Shown: positions 6,294 through 47,803, counted from the first letter of the stretch. The stretch is DNA of 64,000 nucleotides from an uncultured Gammaproteobacteria bacterium (GCA_964355955.1 CAYHFQ010000002.1:2338-66337), one strand, 5' to 3'. Notes: generated from the letters alone by a model not told the origin. Numbers and translations: made by a program.

Positions 6294-6322
6294 TTGACCA
6301 ACAAAATTACGCATGATAATAC
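6294..6322 (+). promoter_or_regulatory. sigma70-like promoter for the Rhs toxin gene
   Basis: TTGACC, 17-bp spacer, TAATAC. The -10 overlaps the first ATG of the ORF-track ORF (6313), which argues the real start is the ATG at 6346. Confidence 0.45.
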
Positions 6323-6345
6323 TGAAGCAGTTTAAATACTGTCCT

Positions 6346-9300
6346 ATGCGCATTTTGCCATCACGCTGGCTGTTTGGTCTTATCGGTATCATAGGGCTTG
6401 GCTTATTGGCTTTACCATCAGCCACTTTCGCTACAGTCACAGATCAAGACAGCTCGCCGTTTGTGGTCAAAAATCAAATCAAACTCGCACCGGACATGCG
6501 CACCGGTGCGTTTTCGTATACTTACCCCATCACCTTACCTCCTGGCCGTAATGGTCTTCAGCCCAGCCTCGGTCTATCTTACAGTAGCAGTAATAGCGAT
6601 AACGCCAACCTCGCCGGCTACGGCTGGTTGCTGAATCTCCCAACCATCGAACGCATAGCCACCCACGGCACCGATGACCTCTACACTAGTCACGACTTTA
6701 CCTCATCACTTTCCGGCGACCTCGAAGACATTTCTTTAACCGACGCCACGCACGGCACATACGGCGCCAAGGTCGACGATGGTTCCTTCCTCGCTTACGT
6801 CTACAATTCCGACGAGTCGTGGACAGTCACGGACAAGCAGGGCACCATCTACACTTTTGCCGCAGACACCTCAGCTCAAATCGTTAGCAATACCGACACC
6901 ACGCACGTCTTCCGTTGGTACTTAACCGAGATGCGAGACACCAACGATAACTTCATCGCTTACACTTACTCCAAAGACGCTGGCCAAGTTTATCCCTCAT
7001 CTATCACCTACACCGGTCACGGTAGCACCGCTGGCATTTTTGCTGTTAACTTCACTCTGGAGAGCCGCAGCGACGCGGTCACTTCTTTCGCCACTGGTTT
7101 CTCTGTCAAAACCTCTTATCGCATCAGCGCCATCAACGTCACCGAGAATAGCTCCACTATTCGTAATTACGCCTTAGCCTACATCGCTGGTAGCAACGAC
7201 ATTCGTTCACTACTCTCAACTATCACGGAAACCGCCACCGACGAAGCGACCTCATCAATAATTACCAAACCAGCTACTACTTTTGACTATTCTGCCAACA
7301 CGGATTCATGGACGGAAGACACGAGTTTTGGCGGCTTACCAGAACCTATTGCTGGCACTAGTCTTGGCAGCCTCGGCATTTATTTCTTCGACGTCAACGG
7401 CGACGCTTTGCCAGACATGGTGAAGTCGAAAAGTACTACTCGCACTGTTTATATTAACAACGGCGACAATACGTGGACAGAGGACACCAGTATTACCGTA
7501 CCGTTGCAGTTCGCTAATTCTTTAGGAAAGGATACAGGCGTCCGAGTATTTGATTTGAATGGCGATGGCGAACAGGATTTAATCTCTTCACATATTGATT
7601 CTAGCGGCAATGTAGCTTCTGGAATTTATCTAAACAATGGTGACGGTACTGGCTGGACGGAGGATACGACGCTTGCTGTACCAATTGCTTTTACCAACGA
7701 CGGCAGTGGTTTAGATTTTGGTGTGCGCATTATAGATGCAGATGGAGACGGTATGCAGGACTTAGTCTACAGTCGAGATGGCATGACGACGGCAGTTTAT
7801 ATTAATAATGGTGACGGTACCGGCTGGACCGAGGACACTGGTTATGTGGTACCTATACAGTTTGTGACTTCTGGTTTGTACGACATGGGAGTTCGTCAGC
7901 TCGATGTTAATGGGGATGGGTTGCTTGATTTAGTAAAATCTAGATACACCGGCTCTTCATCGGTTATCGACGAAGCGGTCTACATTAATAACGGAAATGG
8001 TACAGGATGGAGCGAAGATACAAATTACTCCGTACCTGTTGCTGTAATTTTAAGTAATTTCGCGGATAACGGTGTTCGCTATCTAGATGTTAATAGAGAC
8101 GGGTTGACCGACATTGTCTACTTCCGTTCGTATTCCGGAACTGATTATAAAGATGTCTACATTAATAACGGAAATGGTACTGGTTGGACAGAAGATGCGT
8201 CCTATCAAGCTCCATTAGCGTATACGATTAACGGTTTTGATGTCGGTGTTCGTGAAGAAGACATCAACGGTGACGGACTGGATGATACTATTCGTTCTCG
8301 TGATATTAGTACTTTACAAGAAAATCTCTACCTCGCCAGTCCCACGTTCAGCGATAAACTTACCACTGTCACCACCAGCACTGGTGCTTCAACTTCCGTC
8401 ACTTACCAACCCTCAATCACAGTGGGTGGCGACCTCTCGTTCCCACTATCCGTTGTTGCGACTGAAACTGTCGACGACGGCCTAGGCCACACTGCCACCA
8501 CTAGCTACGACTTCGCGGATGGCGATTACTACTACGCCAGTGAGTATGACCGCAAGTTCGCTGGCTTCGGTATGGTCACCATCACTGACGCTAGTGGCAA
8601 AGTCACTAAGCGTTATTATCACCAGGGCAACGCCACCAATAGTACCCAGGGCGAAAGTAGCGACGACGTCAGCAAACTCTGGCAAATGTATCGCGAAGAA
8701 AGCTATGACGACGCCAGCCATCTATTCCGCACTGTCATTCATTCGTTCACCAGTGTCGACCTCGGCTATAGTCGAACCTTCGTTTACGAGAACCAAACGC
8801 TTGAACTCCGCTATGACGCGGACAGTGACCACACGGACTTAGCCACAAGCTACACTTATGATACTTCAACTGGTAATCTAACCGAAAAGAAAGAGTGGGG
8901 GAGAGTCACCGGCGTTGACGCTGGCACGTTTACAGATTCTGCCAGTGACACCCGGATCACAGATTACACTTACGCCAGTTTCTCGACCGGTCTGTGTGGC
9001 CTCGTCGACGATGAGCTGGTCAAAAACAACGCTGGCTCTACCGTTCAGGAAACAAAATATTATTACGATAGCTCAAGCCTCGGTACCGCCACGCTCGGCA
9101 ATCTGACGACCGAAGCGCATTGGACAGCTGGCAGTAGCTTCGTTAATACCGCCTATACTTACGACGGCTACGGTTTACTCGCCACTAAAACCGATGCTTT
9201 GAGTAACACCACCACCTTCACACCTGACTCGGCTAATCTCTACACAGCCACCCAGACGAATGCTTTAAGCCAGGCCACGGCTTACACTTACGATTACTCA

Positions 9301-12048
9301 TCGGGCCAAGTCTTAACGACGACGGACTCTAATGGGGGAGTCTTCGCCACTACTTACGACGCGCTTGATCGCCCTCTAACAACTTCTCAACCAGTTATCG
9401 GCAGCAGCGGCTCGGTCACTAGCAAGACTTTCAATTATGACGACTCGACCTTACCGACCATGGTCCACGAGACCGATGCTTATAATAGCTCGACTAATCG
9501 CGAGACCTACGTGTATTCGGACGGCCTAGGTCGCGTCATTCAGCAGCGTGTGGAAGCCGAGGGTACCAGCACGTTCGACATCACCGATACGCTCTATAAC
9601 GAACTCGGCCAGGTCGCTAGTACCACATTGCCTTACGCCTCAACTGGCTCGGCTTACACTACGCCGACCACAGACACGACGCTTTACCAAACTCTCGCTT
9701 ACGACGCCCTCGGCCGCGTCACTGCCTCAACCAACGTGGAAGGCACGTCGAGCAAGTCCTACGAAGATTGGGTCGTCACCGAAACCGATGCTCTCAGTAA
9801 CACCAAGAATTTTGCTTACGACGCTTACGGCAACTTGAGCGTGGTCGTCGAGCACAAGGGGGCTGTCAGCTATACCACAACTTACGTTTGGGACGCACTC
9901 GGTCGCCTGTACAGTTTGACGGATGCCGATGGCGCTGTGCGTGGTTTTAGCTATGACGGCTTGGGTCGACGTCTAACGGCGCAAGACCTACATGTCGCAA
10001 CAGATACCATGTTTGGCGTTTGGACCTACACTTACGACGCTGTAGGCAACCTAGCGATTTCCTATAGCCCGAACGGTATTACTACCACTTACATCTACGA
10101 CGTCCTCAATCGCGTAACCACCGAAGACGCCTCATCAGCCTCCGGCACAGAAATAACTTACACTTACGATAGTTGCACACTTGGCGTTGGTCGCCTCTGC
10201 CAAACCGTAGTCACCGGGGGAGCCACCACCGCTTACACTTACGATGCCCTCGGCCGCACTGCCACTGAAGCAAAAACTATTAGCAGCAACACCTACGCCA
10301 CCAGTTACACTTACGACTTGCAGGGCAATCAAGCCACTATCACCTATCCCGACGGCGCCATCACCACTTTTACTCTCGGCACCGCTGGTCGCGTCAGCCA
10401 AGTCGACTTCACGGACATCGTCAGTTCCGGCAACGCCACTCCAGCTAGCAGCGTGGTCTACGCCCCAAACGGCAAAATCAGCAGCTTCACTAACGGCAAC
10501 GGTGTCACCACCGCCTTCACCTACAACGCCGCTGACCTCTACCGCTTATCCAACCTAGTCAGTACGAGCGGCAGCAATAACATTCAGAATTTTGCTTACA
10601 CCTACGACGCAGCTGGCGACATCAGCCAAATCGCCGACACTTCCAGTCTCTACGCTGCGGACACTATTGCCTACACTTACGACGATCTCTACCGCTTAAC
10701 CGCCGCCACTGCCACCAGCACAGACTCAACACTCGCTTACAGCAAAACCTGGAGCTATGGTGCCACCGGCAACATCTTGGTTGGTGAAGGCCCCTCCCGC
10801 ACCTACGGCGGCACGGACACTGGCAACTACGCCAACCCGCACGCCGTCACGGCCATGGGTACGCGCACTCTCACCTACGACCACAACGGCAATACCACCA
10901 ACGAAGGCATTTGGACTAACACCTGGAACTGGCGGAACCAAATGACGCAGTCGGCAAGGAGTGGTCCCTCAGTCACAGTCACCTACACCTACGACGCCGA
11001 CGGCAACCGTGTCAGCCAAGTCAACGGCTCTCTCACCCTCGTCTACCCGAACGAATATTACTCCTACACCGGCACTACCCACGACCGCCAGATTCCACTC
11101 CCTGGCTACGGCATGGTCGCGACATCAAAGTACAAGGTCTCAACTTCAACATCGACGATCGCTTACCACCATCACGACCACTTGGGCGGTGAACACGTCG
11201 ACACCGACTCCACCGGAGCTACCCTCGAGTACACCATCTACTCGCCCTACGGCAGTATTCAGAAAACCTCTGGCACCTCGGGCTACCTCAACGTCAACAA
11301 ATTCACCGGCAAGCAAGTAGATAAGGACACCGGGTTCTACTACTACGGGGCAAGGTATTGCTCTGCGAATTATGGGCGTTTCCTCAGCGAGGATAATGTG
11401 TTTTTGGCAGTTGGCGACGACAACAGCCACTTACGAGATCCACAAGCACTGAACTCCTATTCGTACGCCAGGAACAACCCACTACGATTCGTCGATCCAG
11501 ATGGCAATTTCTTTAGTGGCTTTGGCGATATCGCCATTCTCGGTATCGACATAGGCTTCTTATTAAGCGATAATAAAGCAGGTGCTGGAATTGGCACAAT
11601 GGCAGCGGATGTGGGGTTCTTGGCTCTCGATACAATTAGCACCATTATTCCTGGTGTGCCTGCGGGTGCTGGAGTAGCAGCACATGGTATAACAGCCACA
11701 ACTAAAGCAGCTGAAGGAGTAATTAGAGCAGGCGAAGCCGCTCGGGTCACCAAAGCGACATTAAACGCAGAGAGGAAATCGGCAGTAAAGAATGCTTGGA
11801 AGGCAGAACGTGAAGCAGTGACTAAAACAGGTACAGGTACTCGACGCTGGAGCGAATCTCAAACTTCTGAATTATTAGGAAAAGGCAAGGTATCCGGCTA
11901 TGAAGGACATCATATTAACAGTGTGAACGGCAGCCCATTATTAGCTGGAATTGCCAATAATATTAAATTTCTGACACGGGATGAGCATTTAGCTGAGCAT
12001 GGTGGTAGTTGGCTTAATAAAACCGTTGGTAAATTACTTAATCGTTAA
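6346..12048 (+). CDS. secreted SpvB / FG-GAP / RHS-repeat polymorphic toxin (TcB-TcC-fusion-like Rhs protein) with a C-terminal GHH-type HNH/EndoVII nuclease tip
   Basis: N-terminal signal peptide (MRILPSRWLFGLIGIIGLGLLALPSATFA). SpvB-type motif FSYTYPITLPPGRNGLQPSLGLSYSS. Six FG-GAP blades (DxNGDGxxD). Many YD/RHS repeats (YTYDALGR...). RHS core (FYYYGARYCSANYGRFLSEDNV ... NNPLRFVDPDGN). Then a Gly/hydrophobic linker and a tip with GYEGHHINSV...FLTRDEHLAEHG. The ORF-track start at 6313 adds 11 aa before the signal peptide. Confidence 0.85.
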   Translation: MRILPSRWLFGLIGIIGLGLLALPSATFATVTDQDSSPFVVKNQIKLAPDMRTGAFSYTYPITLPPGRNGLQPSLGLSYSSSNSDNANLAGYGWLLNLPTIERIATHGTDDLYTSHDFTSSLSGDLEDISLTDATHGTYGAKVDDGSFLAYVYNSDESWTVTDKQGTIYTFAADTSAQIVSNTDTTHVFRWYLTEMRDTNDNFIAYTYSKDAGQVYPSSITYTGHGSTAGIFAVNFTLESRSDAVTSFATGFSVKTSYRISAINVTENSSTIRNYALAYIAGSNDIRSLLSTITETATDEATSSIITKPATTFDYSANTDSWTEDTSFGGLPEPIAGTSLGSLGIYFFDVNGDALPDMVKSKSTTRTVYINNGDNTWTEDTSITVPLQFANSLGKDTGVRVFDLNGDGEQDLISSHIDSSGNVASGIYLNNGDGTGWTEDTTLAVPIAFTNDGSGLDFGVRIIDADGDGMQDLVYSRDGMTTAVYINNGDGTGWTEDTGYVVPIQFVTSGLYDMGVRQLDVNGDGLLDLVKSRYTGSSSVIDEAVYINNGNGTGWSEDTNYSVPVAVILSNFADNGVRYLDVNRDGLTDIVYFRSYSGTDYKDVYINNGNGTGWTEDASYQAPLAYTINGFDVGVREEDINGDGLDDTIRSRDISTLQENLYLASPTFSDKLTTVTTSTGASTSVTYQPSITVGGDLSFPLSVVATETVDDGLGHTATTSYDFADGDYYYASEYDRKFAGFGMVTITDASGKVTKRYYHQGNATNSTQGESSDDVSKLWQMYREESYDDASHLFRTVIHSFTSVDLGYSRTFVYENQTLELRYDADSDHTDLATSYTYDTSTGNLTEKKEWGRVTGVDAGTFTDSASDTRITDYTYASFSTGLCGLVDDELVKNNAGSTVQETKYYYDSSSLGTATLGNLTTEAHWTAGSSFVNTAYTYDGYGLLATKTDALSNTTTFTPDSANLYTATQTNALSQATAYTYDYSSGQVLTTTDSNGGVFATTYDALDRPLTTSQPVIGSSGSVTSKTFNYDDSTLPTMVHETDAYNSSTNRETYVYSDGLGRVIQQRVEAEGTSTFDITDTLYNELGQVASTTLPYASTGSAYTTPTTDTTLYQTLAYDALGRVTASTNVEGTSSKSYEDWVVTETDALSNTKNFAYDAYGNLSVVVEHKGAVSYTTTYVWDALGRLYSLTDADGAVRGFSYDGLGRRLTAQDLHVATDTMFGVWTYTYDAVGNLAISYSPNGITTTYIYDVLNRVTTEDASSASGTEITYTYDSCTLGVGRLCQTVVTGGATTAYTYDALGRTATEAKTISSNTYATSYTYDLQGNQATITYPDGAITTFTLGTAGRVSQVDFTDIVSSGNATPASSVVYAPNGKISSFTNGNGVTTAFTYNAADLYRLSNLVSTSGSNNIQNFAYTYDAAGDISQIADTSSLYAADTIAYTYDDLYRLTAATATSTDSTLAYSKTWSYGATGNILVGEGPSRTYGGTDTGNYANPHAVTAMGTRTLTYDHNGNTTNEGIWTNTWNWRNQMTQSARSGPSVTVTYTYDADGNRVSQVNGSLTLVYPNEYYSYTGTTHDRQIPLPGYGMVATSKYKVSTSTSTIAYHHHDHLGGEHVDTDSTGATLEYTIYSPYGSIQKTSGTSGYLNVNKFTGKQVDKDTGFYYYGARYCSANYGRFLSEDNVFLAVGDDNSHLRDPQALNSYSYARNNPLRFVDPDGNFFSGFGDIAILGIDIGFLLSDNKAGAGIGTMAADVGFLALDTISTIIPGVPAGAGVAAHGITATTKAAEGVIRAGEAARVTKATLNAERKSAVKNAWKAEREAVTKTGTGTRRWSESQTSELLGKGKVSGYEGHHINSVNGSPLLAGIANNIKFLTRDEHLAEHGGSWLNKTVGKLLNR
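7300..8340 (+). repeat. six tandem intragenic FG-GAP (beta-propeller blade) repeats with near-identical nucleotide segments (YINNGDGTGWTEDT)
   Basis: Recurring 'tattaataa(t/c)gg(t/a)ga(c/t)gg...ggctggac(g/c)gag(g/a)aca' DNA. Protein repeats follow the pattern WTEDT...VPxxF...GVRxxDxNGDGxxDLV. Confidence 0.75.
10826..11505 (+). repeat. homology block (RHS core end, NYANPHAV...RFVDPDG) shared with the downstream orphan rhs-CT module
   Basis: About 680 bp aligns colinearly with 12712-13390 at roughly 85-90% nucleotide identity by eye. Protein similarity breaks exactly after DPDGN. Confidence 0.8.
11511..12045 (+). other. C-terminal toxin domain of the Rhs protein: Gly-rich hydrophobic pre-toxin linker plus a GHH-signature HNH/EndoVII-fold nuclease (Tox-GHH-like)
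   Basis: Sequence diverges from the orphan copy right after DPDGN. The GHH motif sits in YEGHHINSVNG, followed by N, H and E (NNIKFLTRDEHLAEHG), consistent with HNH superfamily toxins. The local GC drop is typical of swapped toxin tips. Confidence 0.5.
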
Positions 12049-12052
12049 TAGT

Positions 12053-12652
12053 ATGAATATTCAAGATACGATAATGCCAATTCTAAGAAAAGCTGAAACT
12101 TTAGGTACAGAAAAATTAGATGACGGAACTTTGTTAATTGGCAGAGTTCCGCATATCGCTCCTCTAGCCCGACTCCATATTGTACCGGGTGGTCTTAGAG
12201 AGGAGGGTATTGCTTTGTTGGAGGATCATATTAATAGGAAAATACCTAATAATTATAGAGATTTTTTGCGACAGACAAATGGACTTCACGTATATTCTGA
12301 TGCAATTAGCCTTGATGGATTACGGACTAATTATGCGCGTGACATCGCTGGAGCCTGGCAGCCATTTAGTCTTATTGAGCCTAATACTTATGAACGTCCA
12401 AGAGATGCTAAGGACTCTTATTTATTTATAGGTGGATATGGCTACGACGGATCCTCTCTATTCGTTGATTCCGATTCTGGTAAAGTTTATCGGTGTGCTC
12501 AAAAATATGCATCCGAAATTTTTAACGTCTGGCCTGACTTCTGGACAATGCTAACTTCTGAAGTTGAAAGATTAGATGGGTTGTTCGATGCTGAAGGAAA
12601 GAAGAAATATCCAGATCGGCCAACTACTCCAGAGCCAAATATAAATATATAG
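12053..12652 (+). CDS. SUKH-1 (SMI1/KNR4 family) immunity protein cognate to the Rhs nuclease tip
   Basis: Starts 4 nt after the Rhs stop. SUKH hallmark (IPNNYRDFLRQTNGLHVY, LFVDSDSGKVYRC). It is AT-rich like the toxin tip. The longer ORF-track start (11999) overlaps the Rhs gene and is unlikely. Confidence 0.7.
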   Translation: MNIQDTIMPILRKAETLGTEKLDDGTLLIGRVPHIAPLARLHIVPGGLREEGIALLEDHINRKIPNNYRDFLRQTNGLHVYSDAISLDGLRTNYARDIAGAWQPFSLIEPNTYERPRDAKDSYLFIGGYGYDGSSLFVDSDSGKVYRCAQKYASEIFNVWPDFWTMLTSEVERLDGLFDAEGKKKYPDRPTTPEPNINI

Positions 12653-12711
12653 ATTGTTAATTTTATAAGTTTTTTTATAATTTAATACGGCATTAAATCA
12701 GCTCCTCCCGC

Positions 12712-13390
12712 AACTACGCCAACCCGCACGCCGTCACCACCATGGGTACCCGCACCTTCACCTACGATAATAACGGCAATACCACCAACGAAGGCGTCTG
12801 GACCAACACCTGGAACTGGCGTAACCAAATGACACAATCCACCCGTACCGGCCCCTCCGTCACTGTCACTTACGCCTACGACGCGGACGGCAATCGTGTC
12901 AGCCAAATCAACGGCAGCCTCACCCTCATCTACCCGAACGAATACTACTCCTACACCGGCACCACCCACGATCGTCAGATCCCATTACCTGGTTACGGCA
13001 TGGTCGCGACTTCAAAATACAAAGTTAGCACTTCAACCTCCACCATCGCCTATCACCACCATGATCACTTGGGCGGCGAACACGTCGACACCGACTCCTC
13101 CGGCGCCACCCTCGAGTACACCATCTACTCACCGTACGGCAGTATTCAGAAGACGAGTGGAACAACCGGCTATGTTAACTCGAACAAATTCACTGGCAAG
13201 CAAGTAGACAAGGATACTGGGTTCTATTACTACGGAGCACGTTACTATTCTGCGAATTTTGGTAGGTTCCTAAGCCAAGATAACGTCTTCCTCGCCATCG
13301 GTGTAGATAACGGCATATTAAAAGACTCGCAGGCACTAAATTCCTACTCATACGCCAGGAACAACCCACTACGATTCGTCGATCCAGACG
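12712..13390 (+). repeat. second copy of the RHS-core homology block (partner of 10826-11505)
   Basis: See the partner repeat. It begins 15 nt after an in-frame stop at 12694-12696. Confidence 0.8.
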
Positions 13391-13980
13391 GTAACTCATT
13401 CTGGGATTTCGTAAATCGTGCTGGTAATAGTTTCGGTCGAATTGCTGACTCGATGATCAGAGCCAATAACAGAGTAATTGCTCCAGCAACCAACAGCGCT
13501 TATAATTTCATCACCCTTGGAGCAGGCGACGCCGCTTCTAACATGGGGCGTAACGGGGTAACTGTCGGTGGGTTAGCTCATGTGGGTTATGGGGTTGTGT
13601 ATGGAACTGTCACTACGGCTCTCGCTGCGCTAGATATCGGTGCTGCAGCTGGAGGAGCGGCTGTGAATTTTGGAGTTATGAGCGGTAGAGGCGGTGGTCA
13701 GAATTTGGGAAACGCTTCGGGTAAGTCTGTTAACGGCAGAACAACAATACCTTCTCATTGGACGGTTGAAGAATCTAAGCGTGGGGGAGGGTATATTTAT
13801 ACAAATCCAAACGACACAAGAGAAAATATTAGGCTAATGCCGGGAAACAAAAGCAGTCCCCACACGGTGAGTCAGGCTCCATATATGAGACATCAAGTAA
13901 ACGGAGGCTATCTAGATTCATCTAAAAGAATTAATTCAGATAACGCAGCTACGCACTTTCCAATTAAAACAATCAAATAA
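12742..13980 (+). CDS. orphan rhs-CT module: partial RHS core (no N-terminal shell) fused to a different C-terminal toxin domain of unknown family
   Basis: The first ~215 aa are 85-90% identical to Rhs residues ~1510-1730, including the HHHDHLGGEHVD, FYYYGARY and RFVDPDGN motifs. The in-frame homology (NYANPHAVT) extends upstream of the ATG to 12712 after a stop at 12694. The ~195-aa C-terminus is unique (Gly-rich linker, then HWTVEESKRGGGYIYTNPNDTRENIRLMPGN). Confidence 0.8.
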   Translation: MGTRTFTYDNNGNTTNEGVWTNTWNWRNQMTQSTRTGPSVTVTYAYDADGNRVSQINGSLTLIYPNEYYSYTGTTHDRQIPLPGYGMVATSKYKVSTSTSTIAYHHHDHLGGEHVDTDSSGATLEYTIYSPYGSIQKTSGTTGYVNSNKFTGKQVDKDTGFYYYGARYYSANFGRFLSQDNVFLAIGVDNGILKDSQALNSYSYARNNPLRFVDPDGNSFWDFVNRAGNSFGRIADSMIRANNRVIAPATNSAYNFITLGAGDAASNMGRNGVTVGGLAHVGYGVVYGTVTTALAALDIGAAAGGAAVNFGVMSGRGGGQNLGNASGKSVNGRTTIPSHWTVEESKRGGGYIYTNPNDTRENIRLMPGNKSSPHTVSQAPYMRHQVNGGYLDSSKRINSDNAATHFPIKTIK

Positions 13981-13982
13981 TT

Positions 13983-14348
13983 ATGAACTATATCAGAAAG
14001 CACATTTTCAATTTACTTAATCAGTACCAAGATCTCGCAATGCAACATAAAGAGTGGACCGAAAATTTAACCACTTCATATATAACACCAACGGAATTTA
14101 TCGCCGAATGGTTTGATGATATATTCAACCATGGAGCCGATGAGCTAATTAAGGCGGGTGAGATAAGTATTGAAGAGTGGGAAATTATAGAACCGTTCCA
14201 TGCGTCATTTCGTGCATTCGCAGATGAATACTATAAAAACGAAAATTCAATTCCAGCAGACATGACGACTTATGAGCCTTGGGTAGTAATTGCCAAGACA
14301 GCAGCAGAGACAGTCGAGAAGTTGGAAGATCTGGGTTGGAAGCTATGA
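13983..14348 (+). CDS. candidate immunity protein for the orphan toxin (acidic 121-aa protein)
   Basis: Starts 3 nt after the orphan toxin stop. AT-rich and small, in the position typical of cognate immunity genes. No family recognised. Confidence 0.5.
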   Translation: MNYIRKHIFNLLNQYQDLAMQHKEWTENLTTSYITPTEFIAEWFDDIFNHGADELIKAGEISIEEWEIIEPFHASFRAFADEYYKNENSIPADMTTYEPWVVIAKTAAETVEKLEDLGWKL

Positions 14349-14398
14349 TAAACAATAAAGAACAATTAGAAATTTGTGAGAAATATCAACTACCTTAA

Positions 14399-14686
14399 GT
14401 GGAATCAGCTGAGAATCTAAAAATCGGTATTTCACAAAACGTACGAGAAAGATTGTTATCAATTAATGGTCTTCGTCATAAACAGGAGGGAGATACGACT
14501 GGGTGGTATATCTGGACTGGTGAAGAGTGGACGGAAGATTCCGCATTCCTTGTTCCTGTTCACGTTAAACATATAAATGAATGGAACCCTTTAATCGGCA
14601 AATATCTTGGGCTTCCTCCTGGGACAAGATTCCTTATTACTTCGGAATATGAGGACGTATGGCAAGATCCGTCACTACTAAACTAA
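14399..14686 (+). CDS. hypothetical small protein (possible orphan immunity gene)
   Basis: AT-rich ORF in the immunity array. No motif recognised. Confidence 0.35.
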   Translation: MESAENLKIGISQNVRERLLSINGLRHKQEGDTTGWYIWTGEEWTEDSAFLVPVHVKHINEWNPLIGKYLGLPPGTRFLITSEYEDVWQDPSLLN

Positions 14687-14693
14687 CTTAACT

Positions 14694-15122
14694 ATGAAAA
14701 TTATAAACAAATTAAAACAATGGTGGATGAATCATCAGATAAATATTATGAAGTACACTTGTCCATGTTGTGGGTATATGACTTTCGATGAGGCTCTTGG
14801 TTCAGATGAAATTTGTGATATTTGTTCATGGCACGATGACCTGGTCTCTTATAACCATCCTGACAGGGCTATCGGACCTAACAAAGTCACATTGATACAG
14901 GCACAGGTAAACTATCTTGAATTCGGCATAAGCAATCCTAGCCTAAAAAAATCAAGAGTAAATATCACTAACTACCCAAAGGATAGTTTATGGCGTTTAA
15001 TTGATTTGACTATCGACAAAAATCTTATGAATGGTGGCGGTGAGAGATTTTGGGACCTCTTAATTAAAGAAGTTGGCGAACCCCTACCTAAGTATTACTG
15101 GCTTAGTAATAATGGGAGTTAA
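14694..15122 (+). CDS. Cys-rich CPCC-domain protein (family seen in polymorphic-toxin immunity loci)
   Basis: The YTCPCCGYMTFDE...CDICSWHDD motif matches the CPCC Cys-rich domain. Location is within the immunity array. Confidence 0.55.
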   Translation: MKIINKLKQWWMNHQINIMKYTCPCCGYMTFDEALGSDEICDICSWHDDLVSYNHPDRAIGPNKVTLIQAQVNYLEFGISNPSLKKSRVNITNYPKDSLWRLIDLTIDKNLMNGGGERFWDLLIKEVGEPLPKYYWLSNNGS

Positions 15123-15131
15123 AAAAGTAAT

Positions 15132-15737
15132 ATGGTTAAAAAATCTGTCGAGTCCAGTCTAACCGCTGACAACGAATGCGCAATCTGCCAAACGGGGAGT
15201 ACTGTTGAAAAGTTCGTTGCTCCAGGCATGAAAAGCCAATTAAGTACTAAGCTTTGTTTAGAGTGCAAAGAAAAAGTCAATCAACATTTTTTAGCCGAAA
15301 CACAGGACTCAAATATCGTCAGAGCTATAACCTGGGGAGTTCTTGCGGCTGCAGTTGGTAGTGCTGTTTGGTACTTTGTAGCCATCTGGACGGGTTTAGA
15401 AATAGGCTATCTCGCTATTGGCTTAGGACTTTGGATCGGTTTAGCGGTTCATTTCGGATCGGGTAAAAAGAAGGGCCGTCGATTACAAATAATCAGTTTA
15501 ATTCTGACTTTCTTAGCTATTATAATTGCGAAGAAACTAATCTTTGATTATTATCTCAACGATTATCTTCAGGGTCATTTGGCAGATTTTCAGGATTTTG
15601 TAGTCGGTCAAAAGGTGAGTGTATCATTTTTTGCGGTTGAATTTTGGCAAAGTGTCGCGTCCATCAAGGGTCTACTAATTAGTCTGCTCGGACTTGTTGT
15701 GGCCTTTGTCATTTGCGCACCAAGAAAACTTAAATAA
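15132..15737 (+). CDS. membrane protein with an N-terminal zinc-ribbon-like CxxC...CxxC and 4-5 TM helices
   Basis: ECAICQTG...CLECKEKV, then hydrophobic helices. Last gene of the AT-rich array. Confidence 0.45.
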   Translation: MVKKSVESSLTADNECAICQTGSTVEKFVAPGMKSQLSTKLCLECKEKVNQHFLAETQDSNIVRAITWGVLAAAVGSAVWYFVAIWTGLEIGYLAIGLGLWIGLAVHFGSGKKKGRRLQIISLILTFLAIIIAKKLIFDYYLNDYLQGHLADFQDFVVGQKVSVSFFAVEFWQSVASIKGLLISLLGLVVAFVICAPRKLK

Positions 15738-15744
15738 TAGTAGC

Positions 15745-15772
15745 TTGACTCCCTCACCTCATCTGCTATCAT
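15745..15772 (+). promoter_or_regulatory. candidate promoter for greA
   Basis: TTGACT, 16-bp spacer, TATCAT, about 78 nt upstream of the greA ATG. Confidence 0.35.
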
Positions 15773-15791
15773 AGAACTATCAAACAAATCC

Positions 15792-15822
15792 GTTCCGCTT
15801 TTAGCGGAGCGGCTTTCGTTCT
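15792..15822 (+). terminator. possible terminator of the immunity array (gttccgct-ttt-agcggagc, then a T-rich run)
   Basis: 8-bp stem with a 3-nt loop followed by ggctttcgttct. Confidence 0.3.
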
Positions 15823-15849
15823 ACCAAGAGAAATAGTTAAAACAGCAGT

Positions 15850-16314
15850 ATGTCCAATCCCAACGTTTGTTACATTTCAGCTAGCGGCCTCGTCGACATG
15901 AAGGCTGAGTTGATTGATCGTATTAAAAATATTCGCCCAATTATTGCCGGTAAGATTGGTGATGCTAAGGAACTTGGTGATATCTCGGAAAATTTTGAAT
16001 ATCACGACGCTAAAGAACAGCAAGCCCAAAACGAAATGCGCATTGTCGACTTGACGCACATGATTTCCACGGCCGTGATTGTGGACAATAAGGTGGGCGG
16101 TATGGTCGGCTTGGGCTCTAAGTTCACCGTCAAAGCGGGTGCCGTCGAGAAGACTTACCAATTGGTCGGCGAGAGCGAGGCCAACCCCATGGAAGCCAAA
16201 ATCAGCAATGTTTCGCCACTCGGCGCTGCCTTCATGAACAAGGCACTCGGCGAGAAAGTGAGCGTGACCACCCCGGGCGGCGAAGTCACTTACGAGATAA
16301 TCGCTATCGCTTAG
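15850..16314 (+). CDS. greA: transcription elongation factor GreA
   Basis: GDISENFEYHDAKEQQ (GreA coiled-coil signature) and C-terminal FKBP-like domain. 154 aa. Confidence 0.88.
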   Translation: MSNPNVCYISASGLVDMKAELIDRIKNIRPIIAGKIGDAKELGDISENFEYHDAKEQQAQNEMRIVDLTHMISTAVIVDNKVGGMVGLGSKFTVKAGAVEKTYQLVGESEANPMEAKISNVSPLGAAFMNKALGEKVSVTTPGGEVTYEIIAIA

Positions 16315-16333
16315 CCACAAATCTCGGCTTTAC

Positions 16334-16380
16334 AGAAGCACTTCTTTCCCGTAAAATTGGGCGAGAAGTGCTTTTGTATA
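16334..16380 (+). terminator. intrinsic terminator after greA
   Basis: 10-bp stem (aagcacttct / agaagtgctt) with an 18-nt loop, followed by ttttgtat. Confidence 0.55.
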
Positions 16381-16431
16381 GCTAGCGTTTTGCTTATGTC
16401 TGGAGATGCCAAATTAGGAAATGAAGGATTA

Positions 16432-17916
16432 ATGCGTCGAGACCGTTTGGCTAGCTTGCGTGAGCAGGGGATTGAGCCATATCCCGCCGAACTCGAGCGG
16501 ACTCATGTTATTGCCGACGTGGTCGGTCAGTTTGCGGAGCTTGAAGCCGCTGGCGCCTCAGTCACCATCGTCGGCCGTGTTAAGGCCTTGCGTCAAATGG
16601 GTGGCCTCACGTTTATTCGCCTCGTCGACGGCACGGGGGACATGCAGGTGGTCCTCAAAGAAGATCAAGTTGGTGCCGAACAATATCAACTCTTTATCAA
16701 TCACGCCGACGTGGGCGACTTCTTCGGTTTTACTGGCGGCATGTACGTCACCCAAAAAGGCGAACGCTCCGTGCTCGCCGGCAACTTTACCATTCTCGCT
16801 AAAGCACTCTCACCTTTGCCAGACAAGTGGAGCGGTTTGCAAGACGTTGAATTGCGCTATCGCCACCGCGAGCTCGATCTCATTAGCAATCCGGAAGTGC
16901 GTAAGCGTTTTGAGACTCGGAGTAAAATCGTTTCCACCATGCGTCGTTTCCTTGACGAGCGTGGCTTCATGGAAGTCGAAACACCTATTTTGCAACCAAT
17001 CCCCGGCGGCGCCAGTGCTCGTCCCTTCATTACTCACCACAACGCACTCGACGCTGATCTCTATTTACGCATCGCGCCTGAACTTTACCTCAAGCGTCTC
17101 GTTGTCGGCGGCTTCGAAAAGATTTACGAAATTGGCCGCTGCTTCCGCAACGAAGGCATCGACTACGCCCACAATCCAGAATTCACCATGATGGAGCTCT
17201 ACTGGGCCTACGCTGACAAAAACTCTTTCGTCGCCATGCTCGAAGAGCTCGTGGTCACCATTGTTAACGCCAGTTTTGGCGGCCTAGTCGTTCCATACGG
17301 CGAGGGCAGTATTGACTTCACCGCACCATGGAAGAAAGTCACTTTCCGTCAAGCCATCATCGACGCTTGCGGCATCGATATCGACACTATTCACTCGTCG
17401 GCCGAATTATTCGTCGCCATCAAAGCTGCTAAACTAAAAATCGACTTCAAAGGCTGCGTTGGCATGGGCGAGTTCTACGATCAGCTCTACAAGAAAACGG
17501 CTCGCGCCGCTATTACTCAGCCAACCTGGGTTTTTGACTATCCAATCGAACTCAAGCCATTAGCTAAAGCCAATCCAGCCGATCCAACCAAGAGTTCATC
17601 TGTTCAGTTGGTCGTGCAAGGCGCGGAAATTATCAACGCTTACTATTACGAACTCAACGACCCACTCGACCAGCGTGCCCGCTTTGAAGAACAACAGTCA
17701 CTCCGCGAACAGGGCAGTGAGGAAGCTCAGTGGATGGACGAGGACTTCCTGTCAGCCCTGGAACACGCCATGCCACCTACCTCTGGCGTCGGCATCGGTA
17801 TTGACCGCTTGGTCGCCTTCTTAACCAACTCACCAAGCCTTAAAGAAGTCATTCTTTTTCCAACCTTGAAACCAATCCAGCCAGCAGTCGTAAAAAATGA
17901 CGAGGCGGCCGTATGA
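16432..17916 (+). CDS. lysS: lysyl-tRNA synthetase, class II
   Basis: N-terminal anticodon-binding OB fold (FIRLVDGTG...QVVL) and class II motifs (FRNEGI, GIGIDRL). Start chosen at MRRDRL with the gaaggat RBS; the upstream ORF-track start overlaps the greA terminator. Confidence 0.9.
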   Translation: MRRDRLASLREQGIEPYPAELERTHVIADVVGQFAELEAAGASVTIVGRVKALRQMGGLTFIRLVDGTGDMQVVLKEDQVGAEQYQLFINHADVGDFFGFTGGMYVTQKGERSVLAGNFTILAKALSPLPDKWSGLQDVELRYRHRELDLISNPEVRKRFETRSKIVSTMRRFLDERGFMEVETPILQPIPGGASARPFITHHNALDADLYLRIAPELYLKRLVVGGFEKIYEIGRCFRNEGIDYAHNPEFTMMELYWAYADKNSFVAMLEELVVTIVNASFGGLVVPYGEGSIDFTAPWKKVTFRQAIIDACGIDIDTIHSSAELFVAIKAAKLKIDFKGCVGMGEFYDQLYKKTARAAITQPTWVFDYPIELKPLAKANPADPTKSSSVQLVVQGAEIINAYYYELNDPLDQRARFEEQQSLREQGSEEAQWMDEDFLSALEHAMPPTSGVGIGIDRLVAFLTNSPSLKEVILFPTLKPIQPAVVKNDEAAV

Positions 17917-18341
17917 AAAAAGTAATGGTCTTCGGCTCGTTCGACGTGCTGCACGAGGGTCACCACCACTTCCTAAAAGACGCTAAGGCGCTAGGTGACT
18001 ATCTAGTAGTCGCTCTAGCCTCGGACGCCAGCATCCGTTTCCTCAAAGAACATGAACCCAAGACTAGCTTCGACGTCAGAGCGGCGGCCTTAAGCCTCAG
18101 TGAATACGTCGACGAAGTAGTGGCAGGGGACGAGCTAGACGACGATGGGAATGACGCTTTCGGCACCTGGCAAGTAATAGACAAATTAAAACCAGACATC
18201 ATCGCCTGCGGTTACGACCAGCAGGCTATAAACGAACTTCTCACGCAACGTTTTGCGACACTAGATTCTCCGCAGATTGTTAGTCTGCCACCGTTTGAAC
18301 CAACAATTTACAAATCCTCACTGCTCAATTCCCTTATATGA
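17913..18341 (+). CDS. cytidylyltransferase-family protein (TagD / glycerol-3-phosphate cytidylyltransferase-like)
   Basis: MKKVMVFGSFDVLHEGHHHFLKDAKALGDYLVVALASD closely resembles the TagD N-terminus with its HxGH motif. Confidence 0.6.
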   Translation: MKKVMVFGSFDVLHEGHHHFLKDAKALGDYLVVALASDASIRFLKEHEPKTSFDVRAAALSLSEYVDEVVAGDELDDDGNDAFGTWQVIDKLKPDIIACGYDQQAINELLTQRFATLDSPQIVSLPPFEPTIYKSSLLNSLI

Positions 18342-19603
18342 TCGACTTAAAAATTCTGCGCGAAACGCCAAACGTAATCAGAGAAGCCGCTAAGGCTAAG
18401 AATGTCGAGATCGATATTGACCGCATTCTCGACCTGGACCGTAAAGTCCGCGGCTTGAAGGGCGAAATGGAAAGTATCGCGGCGCAAAAAAATGACTCCG
18501 GCAAGCGTATTGCTAAGGCTACGCCCGAGGAGCGCAAGGCCATGATTGAGGAAATGCGTCCACTAGACGCCCGCGCCGAAAATTTGCAAGCCGAATTCGC
18601 GCCGCTCGCCGAAGAACTCGAAGAGTTGCTGCACAAAATCCCTAATCCATCTTTGCCAGACGTGCGGATTGGCCACAGCGATACCGAGAACGTCGCTATC
18701 CGCTTGGTTGGCGAACCACGTAAATTTGCTTTCCCTGTTAAGGATCACTTGGAACTCGGCGAAGCGCTCGGCATTATCGACACCGTGCGGGCTGCTAAAG
18801 TCAGCGGCGCTCGCTTCACCTACTTGGTAGGGGACGGAGCCCTCCTTGAAATGGCTCTCGTCGACTACGCTGTTCGCACCGCCATCAAACACGGCTTCAC
18901 GCCAGTTACTGTGCCACATCTCGTCAGCGCCAAAGCTATGCGCGCTATGGGTTATTTGGAGCACGGTGGTCACGACGAAATCTATTATCTAGCCAAAGAC
19001 AACCTTTACCTCATCGGTACGTCGGAACAAGCCATCGGCCCCATGCACACGGATGAGATTCTCGACATCGACGCTGCTCCTAAGCGTTACGTCGGCATTT
19101 CACCGTGCTATCGCCGCGAGTCGGGCACCTACGGCAAGGACACCAAGGGTATCATTCGTTTGCACCAATTCACTAAAGTAGAAATGTTTAGTTTCTGTAA
19201 GCCGGAAGATTCCGCAGCGCAACACGAAATGATGCTGGTGATCGAAGAAGAGCTCATGCAGGGCCTTGGTTTGCCATACCACGTTCTCGACATCGTCTCG
19301 GGCGACCTTGGATTACCTGCCGCCAAAAAGTGGGACATCGAAGCCTGGTTCCCATCCCAAGAGCGTTACCGCGAAACTCATTCCACCAGTAACTGCACAG
19401 ACTTCCAAGCTCGCCGCCTCAATACTCGTTATCGTACAGAGGAGGGGATTAACTTCGTTCACACCGTCAACGGCACTGCCTTCTCCGGCCGACCAATCGC
19501 CGCTATCCTCGAAAACTTCCAGGAAGCCGACGGCAGCGTGCGCATTCCGGAAGTTTTGCAAGCCTACATGGGCAAGAGTGTCATCACCCCAAGAACAGTC
19601 TAG
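18338..19603 (+). CDS. serS: seryl-tRNA synthetase
   Basis: N-terminal coiled-coil arm (MIDLKILRE...) and class II core (FRxE, TAFSGRPIAAILE). Confidence 0.9.
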   Translation: MIDLKILRETPNVIREAAKAKNVEIDIDRILDLDRKVRGLKGEMESIAAQKNDSGKRIAKATPEERKAMIEEMRPLDARAENLQAEFAPLAEELEELLHKIPNPSLPDVRIGHSDTENVAIRLVGEPRKFAFPVKDHLELGEALGIIDTVRAAKVSGARFTYLVGDGALLEMALVDYAVRTAIKHGFTPVTVPHLVSAKAMRAMGYLEHGGHDEIYYLAKDNLYLIGTSEQAIGPMHTDEILDIDAAPKRYVGISPCYRRESGTYGKDTKGIIRLHQFTKVEMFSFCKPEDSAAQHEMMLVIEEELMQGLGLPYHVLDIVSGDLGLPAAKKWDIEAWFPSQERYRETHSTSNCTDFQARRLNTRYRTEEGINFVHTVNGTAFSGRPIAAILENFQEADGSVRIPEVLQAYMGKSVITPRTV

Positions 19604-19606
19604 TTT

Positions 19607-20737
19607 GTGCGTACTTGGGTCGAGATTTCGCGTACCGCCATGGCTAGCAACGTCGCTGCACTGCAGGCTTTATTAGAGCCGACTGTCTCTCTTTGTGCTT
19701 TCGTGAAGAGTTTCGCCTACGGCCATGACATTTCGCTCACCACCAAGTTACTCGGTGAATCCGGCGTGACGCATTTTGGCGTCGACAGCATTGACGAGGC
19801 CTTGGACGTGAGAGCAGTAGCACCAGAGGCCGCTATCTTTATTATGGGCATGGTGCCGGTCGAGCGTTTTGATGAAGTTGTGGCGCACGATTGCGTGCAA
19901 AATATTTACGACGAAGAAGGCTTGCGCGCCATTGTTGATGCGGCCGTCAAGCAGCAGAAAGTTGCGCTCATTAATATTGAGATAGAGACCGGCTTAAATC
20001 GATTGGGCGTCATCGAACGCGTTTTGGTCGACCTTTTACGAACCATAAAAAACAATCCTCGTAGTGTTAAACTTGTCGGTTTGTCGACCCATCTCTCGTC
20101 AGCGGAAGATGTCGCCGAGCAACATTACGTCTACGCTCAGGAAGATGGCTTGCAGCGCGCTCTGGAGCTTTGTGCGAGTTATGAACTCAGCGTGCCGTTC
20201 GTGCATTGCGCTAATAGTGCAGCGACAATTTTTGCGCCCCGCGTGCACGACACTATGGTTCGCGTCGGCATAGCCCTTTACGGTTTGTGGCCGAGCGCCG
20301 AACTCAAGCTAGCTGTACAACGTGGTCGGGCTTTTGAGTTACAGCCAGTTCTCAGTTGGAAAACTAAAGTTGTGCAAATAAAAGACGTACCAGCCGGCGG
20401 GGCAGTCGGTTATGATCGAACCTTTATTACCAATCGAGCCATCCGCGTCGCAGTTTTGCCAGTTGGCTATTGGGACGGTTACGATCGCGGGTTATCGAAC
20501 AAAGGCAAAGTGCTTATTCATGGCCGTCCCTGTGCTGTACTCGGTCGGATTTGCATGAACATGATGATGGTCGACGTCTCAGAAATTGCGCAAATCAAAG
20601 CGGGCGACGTGGCGACTCTGCTTGGCCGTGAAGGCATGGGTATGGTGACCGCGGAGACAATCGCCCAGGAACTTGGTACAATTAACTATGAAGTCGTCAC
20701 TCGCATCAATCCGCTCATCCCACGTTTAGTCGTATGA
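19607..20737 (+). CDS. alr: alanine racemase
   Basis: PLP-lysine motif AFVKSFAYGHD and C-terminal beta domain. 376 aa. Confidence 0.85.
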   Translation: MRTWVEISRTAMASNVAALQALLEPTVSLCAFVKSFAYGHDISLTTKLLGESGVTHFGVDSIDEALDVRAVAPEAAIFIMGMVPVERFDEVVAHDCVQNIYDEEGLRAIVDAAVKQQKVALINIEIETGLNRLGVIERVLVDLLRTIKNNPRSVKLVGLSTHLSSAEDVAEQHYVYAQEDGLQRALELCASYELSVPFVHCANSAATIFAPRVHDTMVRVGIALYGLWPSAELKLAVQRGRAFELQPVLSWKTKVVQIKDVPAGGAVGYDRTFITNRAIRVAVLPVGYWDGYDRGLSNKGKVLIHGRPCAVLGRICMNMMMVDVSEIAQIKAGDVATLLGREGMGMVTAETIAQELGTINYEVVTRINPLIPRLVV

Positions 20738-44000: not shown

Positions 44001-44691
44001 CAACATGGTTCAATGCGCCACCACGACGAACCGCCTCCAATAAAAACGAACGTAAGCGTGGTAAATCACGCTTGTGAATTATATGCGGTAAACCTGCAAA
44101 TTCTATTTCTTCCACGCGTCGTAACTGATCGTCAACGGTTTCTACCTGCAACTGATAAAAATCTTCTTTGTCTCTAACTACTAGCTTAGGAATAGGACTC
44201 TTTTGGTAAGTATGTTCATGTTCATACAAGACGCTGAGCAACCATGAATCCTCCGACTTTTCAAAAATTTTCTTCCACGACTCGTGAGTTGCGAGATATT
44301 GACGAAAATCTTGCTCATTTTTTATTTTCTCGGGAAAACCGGCTAATTTGAATTGTAGTATGAAATCAGTGGGTATAGTGTCGTGAGGAGTGGCGAAAGA
44401 TTGAAGCTTTTTATCCAAAGCTGGCAACTGGTCAGCCGTAATCGGAGATTGTAATTCAACGGCAAAAACACGCTTGAATTCTTCACCTCGTTCAGCTAAA
44501 TCTTGAGCCGCTGGATTCGCGCCCACTTCACTTATTTTCACTAATGGCTCAGAACGCGCTGCAAATTCAGCTGTGGAAGTTTCACTATAGCCATCTGGTA
44601 CGTCCAACCGCTCTCCGGCAGCCATCGTCGCCAGACCAAGCAAAGCGCCCCGCATCAACCGGCTACCTCCCTCCCCTTGGCCAAACTTCAT
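41074..44691 (-). CDS. giant hypothetical protein (1205 aa), paralog 2 (tandem duplicate of 37322-41044)
   Basis: Same architecture. N-terminus MKFGQGEGG vs MSFGHGERGG. The C-terminal 350 aa are about 75% identical to paralog 1. The 29-nt gap to paralog 1 contains TATAAT. Confidence 0.55.
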   Translation of the reverse strand: MKFGQGEGGSRLMRGALLGLATMAAGERLDVPDGYSETSTAEFAARSEPLVKISEVGANPAAQDLAERGEEFKRVFAVELQSPITADQLPALDKKLQSFATPHDTIPTDFILQFKLAGFPEKIKNEQDFRQYLATHESWKKIFEKSEDSWLLSVLYEHEHTYQKSPIPKLVVRDKEDFYQLQVETVDDQLRRVEEIEFAGLPHIIHKRDLPRLRSFLLEAVRRGGALNHVDDACTTALLDRYIATLTFDSAEFPTVIHKDDSADSLAAAKQLNQISFYKNGISKSLDIQDGDWVNKDAPVSFGLGHQLLRSSTFEGFNPLDFHHPEQFADTVRILTDLGKSAGSTIYRSSLASHFVDLAETRNFPELNTAGLETYQTFFIEFDNNIDFAWDRDNTRNELIRIIRRQAQLGDITPENLETVLAELARLDAESDVEPELLVSLMAPVAHWRGDLTLSLAAEHKLPGELALQEVEKSPTGKAFFHQFFNYRIPDKISLNGFPMVWTLENITEIEKAIEAVDLLGSQIDIGSSNYRDVKFEGELSQPRTWHDLENLAAILKEHERTGRIIVRHLDYSKFPVFSASYKANILKRGSLVSRWFGPGLVERADFSDCIFAVTPDNLPEIKRQFDYLVDVVGTGEARGYLNKLTFAAFPQEVNEKTEADVAATLKLFINSFQEDLASSYAKTLHSDHLYTFAPIITDENLEHENTKRLLVYYGIGSTPETRYSGIKPKFEVSIPLATTFAEFTAGLAKIGLVQDLDNKVAEELKQKFLSQVDWVGVAKGVDIDNIEAVESVRQNINLAIDAAAGDGLVVEVGIRDIANVPVSWLTMEKKITFAEHYLQAEQYGIDPDVVGVYKMLGSFEVRKILEFFDAEGLAADTGDARVAETIERLQAAGANIPVTEGSWQKAWRSMGDPAYIWSKIENKLAAADVMRPEWQGITPIFETRTERLKAGYTFVNWKNNGEELAKAVIGDPAKGATVDYTVKVGGGLTEQVMHDKYPEGALVAESVGAYTTGAMKPAELTINHGYVVNYLISDRDGLAIVDVNGALNIVNRDKLTRHDLDSKEAADHLAFRDKLEDFSTLLTLARKNEIDVMSGHLLVDNGELAIASNSSNVRDKRRAIATFKDGTFGLIDFSQPMTLYEEAVIAKSMNVKGLVNLDTGYYDHANVYDASGMLFALGQQDQDGTNNKFAFLTGMPMVYQTAQE

Positions 44692-46185: not shown

Positions 46186-46192
46186 AATGAAA

Positions 46193-47191: not shown

Positions 47192-47258
47192 ATCTCAATC
47201 CTCAATATTAACCAGAAAATTAGCCCTTATTTACCGCTCAGTTAAATATATTGTACTA

Positions 47259-47800: not shown

Positions 47801-47803
47801 ACT

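Follow-up and report, generated by a model that had tools for sequence, protein, structure and literature searches.

A probable Rhs-type polymorphic toxin locus with exchangeable tips and predicted immunity genes in a Candidate Phyla Radiation bacterium

What kind of device is encoded by the large Rhs gene and the train of small genes behind it in a 64,000-nucleotide stretch of DNA from GCA_964355955.1 (CAYHFQ010000002.1:2338-66337, hereafter the window), and against whom would it be directed? The Rhs gene lies at 6313-12048 on the + strand and is followed by six smaller open reading frames (ORFs) in the same orientation, as far as 15737. Our results make it very probable that this is a Rhs-type polymorphic toxin locus in a Candidate Phyla Radiation (CPR) bacterium, formed by a secreted cocoon with a GHH tip, a SUKH antidote and a reservoir of tip and immunity cassettes. 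Shell repeats, a core motif, a hypervariable tip, an adjoining immunity gene and orphan modules carrying core sequence, which are the marks of Rhs/YD polymorphic toxins, were all found. The features of the main gene and of the gene next to it are the following.

6294-6323, + strand: promoter-like site 5' of the Rhs gene (TTGACC, 18-nt spacer, AATACT; 9/12 consensus matches)
6313-12048, + strand: main Rhs polymorphic-toxin gene, longest ORF 1911 aa (from the ORF list, translation and domain matches)
6346-6432, + strand: Sec-type signal peptide MRILPSRWLFGLIGIIGLGLLALPSATFA, predicted cut before TVTDQD (read from the sequence directly)
6502-6987 (aa 64-225), + strand: SpvB/TcB-type N-terminal domain (Pfam SpvB E 4.4e-16, 59 bits, cut-off 22)
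7378-8373 (~aa 356-687), + strand: six-bladed FG-GAP beta-propeller (FG-GAP_3 E 6e-18, four stretches)
8374-11238, + strand: RHS/YD-repeat shell, the cocoon wall (RHS_repeat E 2.5e-26, three stretches; YD_repeat_2x E 1.4e-17, two stretches)
11239-11508, + strand: Rhs-associated core, ending PLRFVDPDGN (TIGR03696 aa 1643-1731, E 5.9e-17)
11509-11760, + strand: pre-toxin linker A, hydrophobic and Gly/Ala-rich, separating the toxin domain from the cleavage motif
11761-12048, + strand: predicted nuclease tip of the Tox-GHH type, HNH/EndoVII fold (Pfam Tox-GHH, match aa 1817-1887)
12053-12652, + strand: SUKH-1 (SMI1/KNR4) protein without signal peptide (SMI1_KNR4 E 7e-10, 40 bits, cut-off 25.4)

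A preliminary description of this region had announced a Sec-exported protein of about 1.9 thousand residues, and the 1911-aa ORF agrees with that size. Its start coordinate of 6294 had to be given up, since this position belongs to the -35 box of the promoter-like site and is not coding. Translation probably begins at M12 (nt 6346), which gives a protein of 1900 aa, because an identical 1900-aa database protein (P0001) begins there, as does the nearest homologue (P0002), from the nearest genome in GTDB, Candidatus Uhrbacteria UBA11707 (Patescibacteria/Parcubacteria group), and because the promoter-like site overlaps the ATG at 6313. The consensus scan returned 17 promoter-like sites in the region against 13.6 expected, so that the one at 6294-6323 is weak evidence. 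The putative signal peptide has a positive n-region, a hydrophobic core of ~20 residues with a KD19 maximum of 2.0 (aa 14-43) and an A-x-A-like c-region, PSATFA, an organization consistent with the proposed dependence on Sec.

The profile matches obtained with Pfam and NCBIfam on the long ORF all exceed the curated cut-offs, and the fusion of SpvB, FG-GAP and RHS parts proposed earlier was recovered domain by domain. The propeller contains six DxNGDG motifs (aa 360, 414, 475, 531, 592 and 650), its strands fall into six groups of four in the AlphaFold model, as expected from the blade number first proposed, and the DNA that encodes it repeats with a period of 171-183 nt. The shell DNA carries periodic YTYD-coding repeats, the shell protein also matches DUF6443 (aa 1052-1134, E 2.3e-6), and its sequence matches in the PDB were RhsA (7q97) and Tse5. 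When the model was aligned to known structures, values of 25.7 and 681 were obtained for the TcdB2-TccC3 fusion (6sue), 21.7 and 696 for YenB (5kis), 21.7 and 236 for the SpvB N-domain (6p0x), and 13-23 and about 300-330 for teneurins and the Rhs shells of type VI secretion systems (T6SS); one input row, derived from locus L011, was left out of a structure-prediction alignment. Because of these alignments, the earlier phrase "TcB plus TcC in one chain" is accurate in structural terms. The core closes with PLRFVDPDGN at aa 1723-1732, which fits the PxxxxDPxGL-type demarcation motif of Rhs proteins (PMC8636562), with N instead of L as the last residue, and is the predicted autoproteolysis site. 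The GC content is 0.52 in the shell and flanks; the toxin domains and the small genes, at 0.36-0.41, are AT-rich, as had been noticed.

Behind the core, linker A (~85 residues) reaches a KD19 of 1.74 at aa 1733-1751 and has a shell-like GC of 0.49, unlike the toxin domain that it precedes. This toxin domain matches Tox-GHH (PF15636) with E 2.9e-19, or 1.7e-20 when the tip is searched alone (69-73 bits versus a cut-off of 25), its GHH triplet and DEHLAEH motif are both intact, and its best sequence matches in the PDB (for 11761-12045) are teneurin C-terminal GHH domains, at E 5e-11. The match and the motifs together are consistent with the GHH nuclease first suspected here. The SUKH-1 gene begins 4 nt past the Rhs stop codon and adjoins the GHH tip in two genomes, since in UBA11707 both have been displaced together, with ~67% aa identity between the SUKH proteins. 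This retained linkage, in addition to the family match, speaks for the immunity role originally given to the gene, and its product is the predicted cognate immunity protein of the GHH tip.

The comparison with UBA11707 also shows that tips are exchanged. The flanks of the two loci are collinear at 79-81% nt identity, and the gene order of UBA11707 is as in the window: UvrD-like helicase, mreB, mreC, a 168-aa ORF (in the mreD position, with no family match), PBP2, the Rhs gene with its array, greA, lysS and serS. On these sequence grounds the source is assigned to a CPR (Uhrbacteria-like) bacterium, and a small-genome, possibly episymbiotic organism, as first imagined, is consistent with the synteny and with the source, an ENA metagenome contig of 1,085,513 bp (ERZ4201064 NODE_1) on which the exact protein is encoded. 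The variable part extends over 11524-15743 in the window versus 15185-19779 in the UBA11707 locus (L003), with collinearity resuming at 15743. Up to aa 1700 the body is 60-94% identical to its UBA11707 orthologue per 50-aa window, falling to 16-28% after DPDGN. At the nucleotide level, 11320-13394 aligns to L003 16146-18211 and 12710-13656 to L003 14484-15430. In UBA11707, the linker A, GHH tip and SUKH gene of the window form an orphan that starts only at ...VDRDGN (L003 16314-17482), and the main gene carries linker B (described below) joined to a toxin domain of a third kind, with a 124-aa gene behind it. Because the GHH and SUKH cassette is a displaced orphan in UBA11707 while the main gene there has a different tip, we conclude that tips have been swapped, and the alignment of these two related genomes is direct evidence of tip displacement at the conserved core.

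Two further observations were made in the arrays of related loci. At the end of the UBA11707 array, just before greA, there is a lone 118-nt Rhs-core fragment (L003 19647-19764), 87-91% identical to 11000-11117 and 12887-13004 of the window, which is probably the scar of an earlier cassette. DUF695 genes are found in the small-gene arrays behind two different CPR Rhs genes (L003 18915-19370 and L010 14650-15102), and this recurrence makes DUF695 a candidate immunity family.

Downstream of the SUKH-1 gene, the window contains an orphan cassette of its own, with the following parts.

12654-12681, + strand: promoter-like site before the orphan cassette (TTGTTA, 16-nt spacer, TATAAT; 10/12 matches)
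12710-13394, + strand: orphan Rhs core, repeating 10823-11507 (the core's last 228 codons) in direct orientation
12742-13980, + strand: orphan toxin ORF of 412 aa, comprising truncated core, linker B and toxin (TIGR03696 aa 129-217, E 5.6e-21)
13395-13690, + strand: pre-toxin linker B (SFWDFVNRAGNSF...GVTVGGLAHVGYGV...), hydrophobic and Gly-rich, recurring before different toxins
13705-13977, + strand: PT7-like toxin domain, a predicted metal-dependent DNase (remote relative of PT7(Bc), PDB 8owu)
13983-14348, + strand: predicted cognate immunity protein for the PT7-like tip (121 aa), beginning 3 nt past the orphan stop

An orphan toxin tip had been expected in this place, and a truncated core with a different tip was indeed found. 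The two core copies are 82.6% identical over 684 nt and the repeat stops exactly at DPDGN; their products share 90% aa identity, with a nonsynonymous to synonymous substitution ratio (dN/dS) of 0.076 at a dS of 0.99. A decaying pseudogene was considered and rejected on these values, which indicate that the orphan core is old and selectively maintained, and neither a recent duplicate nor a decaying remnant. Its two ends carry stretches of exact identity, 28 and 38 nt long, that could seed recombination. Since an in-frame stop lies just upstream of the orphan core and the first ATG is at 12742, the module is without signal peptide and shell. The promoter-like site in front of it is statistically no different from chance.

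The orphan tip had no match in Pfam, and a word-indexed homologue search returned one protein, which was matched via the linker alone. An exhaustive HMMER search, on the other hand, gave 398 representative clusters at E<=1e-3; among the 150 proteins listed, the domain ends at most 10 residues from the C-terminus in 135 of 157 matched stretches, and its carriers vary in length, several of them having RHS repeats. An alignment of 38 sequences gave the consensus GIPxxW..PSKKGGG..Y.P.N....VR.MPGNPNSP.P.QQ.PYV.....G...D.NG..V......AHIP, and the AlphaFold model built from it reached a predicted local distance difference test (pLDDT) score of 91.9. The domain has a fold and a sequence profile in common with PT7(Bc), as well as the C-terminal position in polymorphic toxins. 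Because PT7(Bc), its relative, has been described as a Mg-dependent non-specific endo-DNase with a novel fold (bioRxiv 10.1101/2021.10.19.465003), the orphan tip is most likely a second DNase, of PT7-like type. The same work reported the family in Firmicutes and Proteobacteria only. The invariant residues of the family alignment are R43, Y60 and H84; the catalytic residues of PT7 are, in its own numbering, D37 and H47. As for the adjoining gene, its product has no family match but is 33% identical (E 9e-17) to that of the gene immediately following the one for P0014, which is a full-length Rhs protein from another bin with a tip homologous to that of the orphan, and 13983-14348 is predicted to be the cognate immunity gene because it co-varies with this tip.

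Linkers A and B have no match in Pfam, and they may hold a function of their own. At E<=1e-10, the database search for homologues of the main protein yielded 482 proteins out of 8000 candidates that were scored. The tips of 90 homologues are 143-235 aa long, with many unrelated sequences, and 37 of the 90 (41%) have a segment with KD19>=1.6 within 120 aa of the motif; the shell control (400 aa) gave 1. With KD19>=1.2 the counts are 65 of 90 and 4, respectively. Linker B precedes different toxin domains in UBA11707 (P0002), P0010-P0012 and P0014-P0017, and the linkers have a shell-like GC of ~0.50, that of the toxin domains being 0.41. The frequency of hydrophobic segments, the recurrence of linker B and the shell-like GC together suggest an independent module, and the pre-toxin segment may be a separate membrane-insertion or translocation module.

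Three more small genes and a hairpin complete the island.

14399-14686, + strand: Imm33-like protein (95 aa), stand-alone immunity-family gene (Pfam E 1.6e-33)
14694-15122, + strand: Cys_rich_CPCC protein (Pfam E 1e-24; GC 0.36)
15132-15737, + strand: 201-aa protein with an N-terminal CxxC...CxxC and several hydrophobic helices (no family match)
15790-15812, + strand: terminator-like hairpin closing the island, before greA (10-bp stem, 7 GC pairs, T-rich tail)

The Imm33-like match spans profile positions 16-103, the N-terminus being short by ~13 residues, and the word-indexed search with the CPCC protein gave two matches, itself and one relative from a short contig. All three genes have a GC of 0.36-0.41 and are absent from the UBA11707 locus. 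At least four further small AT-rich genes, a CPCC Cys-rich protein among them, had been counted in the preliminary description and are present with the low GC attributed to them. Its "immunity-gene graveyard" can be kept in part: 13983-14348, which co-varies with the orphan toxin, and the Imm33-like gene fit the expression, but the CPCC protein and the 201-aa membrane protein are without demonstrated link to immunity. Judged by profile match, immunity has family-level support for the Imm33-like gene alone among these three. PADLOC did not credibly assign any of the small genes to a defence system, its sole listing being a weak and implausible match to a methyltransferase, and a search of the isolated tips, linkers and unassigned small proteins against Pfam at E<=5 gave nothing credible besides Tox-GHH. 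No tRNA or integration hallmark was seen at the island flanks, and ARAGORN found no tRNA or tmRNA gene in the 64-kb window (1-64000).

Homologues of the main protein with a named organism are mostly from CPR (Ryan-, Vogel-, Uhr- and Doudnabacteria, Paceibacterota and Parcubacteria), with few from archaea or other bacteria, and the architecture is for this reason considered common in CPR. The "notable investment" in antagonism attributed to this organism is, consequently, less exceptional than it was made to appear. In public CPR genomes, homologues already appear under the annotation of SpvB/TcaC- or FG-GAP-containing proteins, and in the literature on Rhs toxins in CPR no dedicated study was found, although an RHS/YD toxin with an immunity gene is mentioned in passing for a soil Saccharibacterium (PMC6031116). 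A homologue in a Woesearchaeota bin (L004) is 28% identical across aa 32-1734, and P0055 (Ca. Methanoperedens) has the same architecture. These archaeal-bin proteins suggest that the device has spread between archaea and CPR bacteria, unless they are mis-binned.

If the cocoon is secreted, it is of interest whether partner machinery is encoded with it. TcA, PAAR, VgrG, Hcp and other T6SS domains were searched for in the ~45 ORFs scanned across the window and none was found, in line with what had been said of TcA, PAAR, VgrG and T6SS genes at the outset. TcA, PAAR, VgrG and T6SS genes were likewise not found within 8-10 kb of four related loci, which lie in three different neighbourhoods: PBP2/greA; extracytoplasmic function (ECF) sigma, anti-sigma and helix-turn-helix (HTH) genes on one side with a glycosyltransferase gene on the other; and a Y1 transposase gene with genes like those of type IV secretion systems (T4SS) nearby. 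In each of them the Rhs gene is accompanied only by a downstream small-gene array.

Some observations on the surroundings can be added. In the loci of P0014 and P0013 (L010 and L012), an HTH_17 gene and a divergent ECF sigma gene with a DUF5667 anti-sigma-like gene precede the Rhs gene, an arrangement that hints at regulated expression in that CPR lineage. In the P0003 locus (L011) a Y1 transposase gene adjoins, and PrgI, TraC-like and VirB4-like genes (monoderm-type T4SS) and an M23 peptidase gene are found ~8 kb off. Elsewhere in the window, two adjacent genes on the - strand (37322-41044 and 41074-44691) code for ~1200-aa proteins with a C-terminal NAGPA (phosphodiester glycosidase) match alone, and these may be large surface proteins, possibly paralogous. 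The region 44701-52914 (mostly - strand) carries DUF2779, two RhuM-family genes (one truncated), a Schlafen-group-3-like helicase, two Fic/DOC genes and a NYN-domain protein, and resembles a defence or mobile-element island, the second accessory island of the window.

Among the known systems, the BC subcomplex of Tc toxins (TcdB2-TccC3 of P. luminescens, PDB 6sue/4o9x, and YenB-YenC2 of Y. entomophaga) is built from two polypeptides, whereas the protein of the window is one, with its own Sec signal peptide and no TcA nearby. Its pre-tip part is also shorter, at 1732 aa against ~2150 aa in Tc BC, which reflects a shorter shell. Tc toxins carry eukaryote-directed enzymes without immunity, in contrast to the predicted antibacterial nuclease tips, immunity genes and orphan cassettes found here. 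T6SS Rhs effectors (RhsA 7q97, Tse5 8cp6 and Rhs1/Tre23 7pq5) rely on PAAR, VgrG and Eag chaperones and possess a plug at the N-terminus, none of which is present in the window, where the N-terminus of the protein consists of a signal peptide and SpvB and the scanned ORFs hold no T6SS domain. T6SS are not known from this class of organisms. PT7(Bc)-PIM7 of B. cereus (PDB 8owu) has an LXG carrier of the type VII secretion system, unlike the PT7-like tip of the window, which is 23% identical and belongs to a Rhs cocoon family; a PDB sequence search with its immunity candidate found nothing, with no detectable similarity to PIM7 or another PDB chain.

A closer parallel is B. subtilis WapA, which Koskiniemi et al. 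are said to have described in 2013 as a Sec-dependent Gram-positive Rhs/YD toxin. Both proteins have a signal peptide, a YD shell, a C-terminal nuclease tip past the core motif and an adjoining immunity gene, and both are T6SS-independent; the differences are the N-terminal cell-wall-binding repeats of WapA, in place of which an SpvB domain and a propeller are found here, and the fact that contact-dependence was shown for WapA, while the system of the window is known from sequence and models. For a cell without outer membrane, WapA is the best functional analogy. The locus may serve the contact-dependent competition proposed in the preliminary description.

In such a scheme, the main protein would be exported by Sec, and its SpvB N-domain, six-bladed propeller, YD shell and core plug would form a self-contained TcB+TcC-like cocoon, as they do at the level of domains and fold. 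The aspartyl-protease motif of the core would cleave after ...VDPDGN (N1732), with the tip of ~180 aa, hydrophobic linker and GHH HNH/EndoVII nuclease together, staying encapsulated in the cage until contact with a target cell releases it. The tip would then pass the target membrane, possibly aided by its hydrophobic linker, and degrade DNA, with the cytoplasmic SUKH-1 protein shielding the producer and its kin. The orphan cassette and further small genes would act as a reservoir, in which immunity genes could guard against the tips of relatives, and the conserved 684-nt core repeat would permit homologous recombination by which the main gene acquires a different tip. Both the way in which the tip would cross the target membrane and the nature of the target (kin, competitors or host) are speculative. 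Several points weigh against this scheme. Of the two canonical DPxGL motifs, the first is degenerate (SEDNVF) and lies 34 instead of 22 residues from the second, so that competence for cleavage is assumed. The propeller is kept without TcA, though in Tc toxins this is the element by which TcB attaches to TcA. No obvious Shine-Dalgarno sequence precedes the orphan ORF, which may be silent, the relationship of its tip to PT7 is remote at 23% identity and was missed by Foldseek, and nothing ties the CPCC and 201-aa membrane proteins to immunity.

The same set of parts could be read as a weapon of an epibiotic CPR cell against its host, with DNase tips injected to kill it or to free nucleotides that CPR cannot make, and immunity genes that mainly prevent self-intoxication. 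The source is a small-genome Patescibacterium, both tips encoded in the locus are predicted to be DNases, members of the family occur widely in CPR, with relatives in DPANN/archaeal bins, and the 41% of family tips that carry a hydrophobic segment of transmembrane grade could traverse a host membrane with it. We nevertheless consider a host-directed function unlikely, since arrays of orphan tips and stand-alone immunity genes, with tips that change rapidly from one sister genome to the other, are characteristic of discrimination among kin or competitors and not of a fixed effector aimed at a host, and there is no known host.

Two other readings start from the architecture of the protein. It is highly improbable that the locus encodes the BC part of a three-component Tc toxin, with TcA elsewhere in the genome and the propeller docking as in Photorhabdus, even though several homologues match TcdB_toxin_midN and the protein has the TcB-type N-terminal SpvB domain and a cocoon-embedded propeller. 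No ORF of the window is TcA-like, and the other two proteins above 1200 aa match NAGPA alone. The four related loci have no TcA-sized neighbour with a Tc domain in any of their three neighbourhoods, and the protein differs from known TcB and TcC in carrying a Sec signal peptide of its own. Orphan tips accompanied by immunity genes, moreover, typify antibacterial Rhs systems, not Tc toxins. Propeller, YD shell and GHH domain are also the layout of teneurins, whose C-termini are the closest solved relatives of the GHH domain, and a teneurin-type surface protein for adhesion or recognition, in which the GHH domain has lost its nuclease activity and the genes behind it are passengers without relation to it, was considered as well. 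We give it hardly any credence: the GHH triplet and DEHLAEH are kept here versus GYY in teneurin-3, the SUKH-1 gene remains linked to the tip through rearrangement, and the tip is replaced wholesale between sister genomes. Teneurins themselves are eukaryotic receptors, type II membrane proteins that have an NHL propeller and no immunity gene, and their tip lies outside the shell (PMC8636562).

The ways in which CPR/Patescibacteria attack, compete for or exploit cells are largely unknown, and few effectors have been defined. In kind, the locus described here is a textbook polymorphic toxin system in an under-studied class of organisms, and it offers a complete, testable and self-contained Rhs cocoon toxin in CPR, with two predicted DNase tips and a candidate immunity gene for each. 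The sister genome captures the replacement of a tip, the PT7 DNase family would be extended to CPR, and the recurrent hydrophobic pre-toxin module is a candidate membrane-translocation element. A bolder proposal, which we hold to be rather doubtful, is that CPR bacteria, along with some DPANN and other archaea, possess in their SpvB-propeller-Rhs proteins a distinct Sec-exported, TcA-independent delivery class, in which the pre-toxin segment inserts into the single membrane of the target and brings the nuclease through it with no partner machinery, and the propeller binds a receptor on the target surface. If this were true, and the target were a host cell, it would be one way for ultra-small epibionts to kill or mine their hosts.

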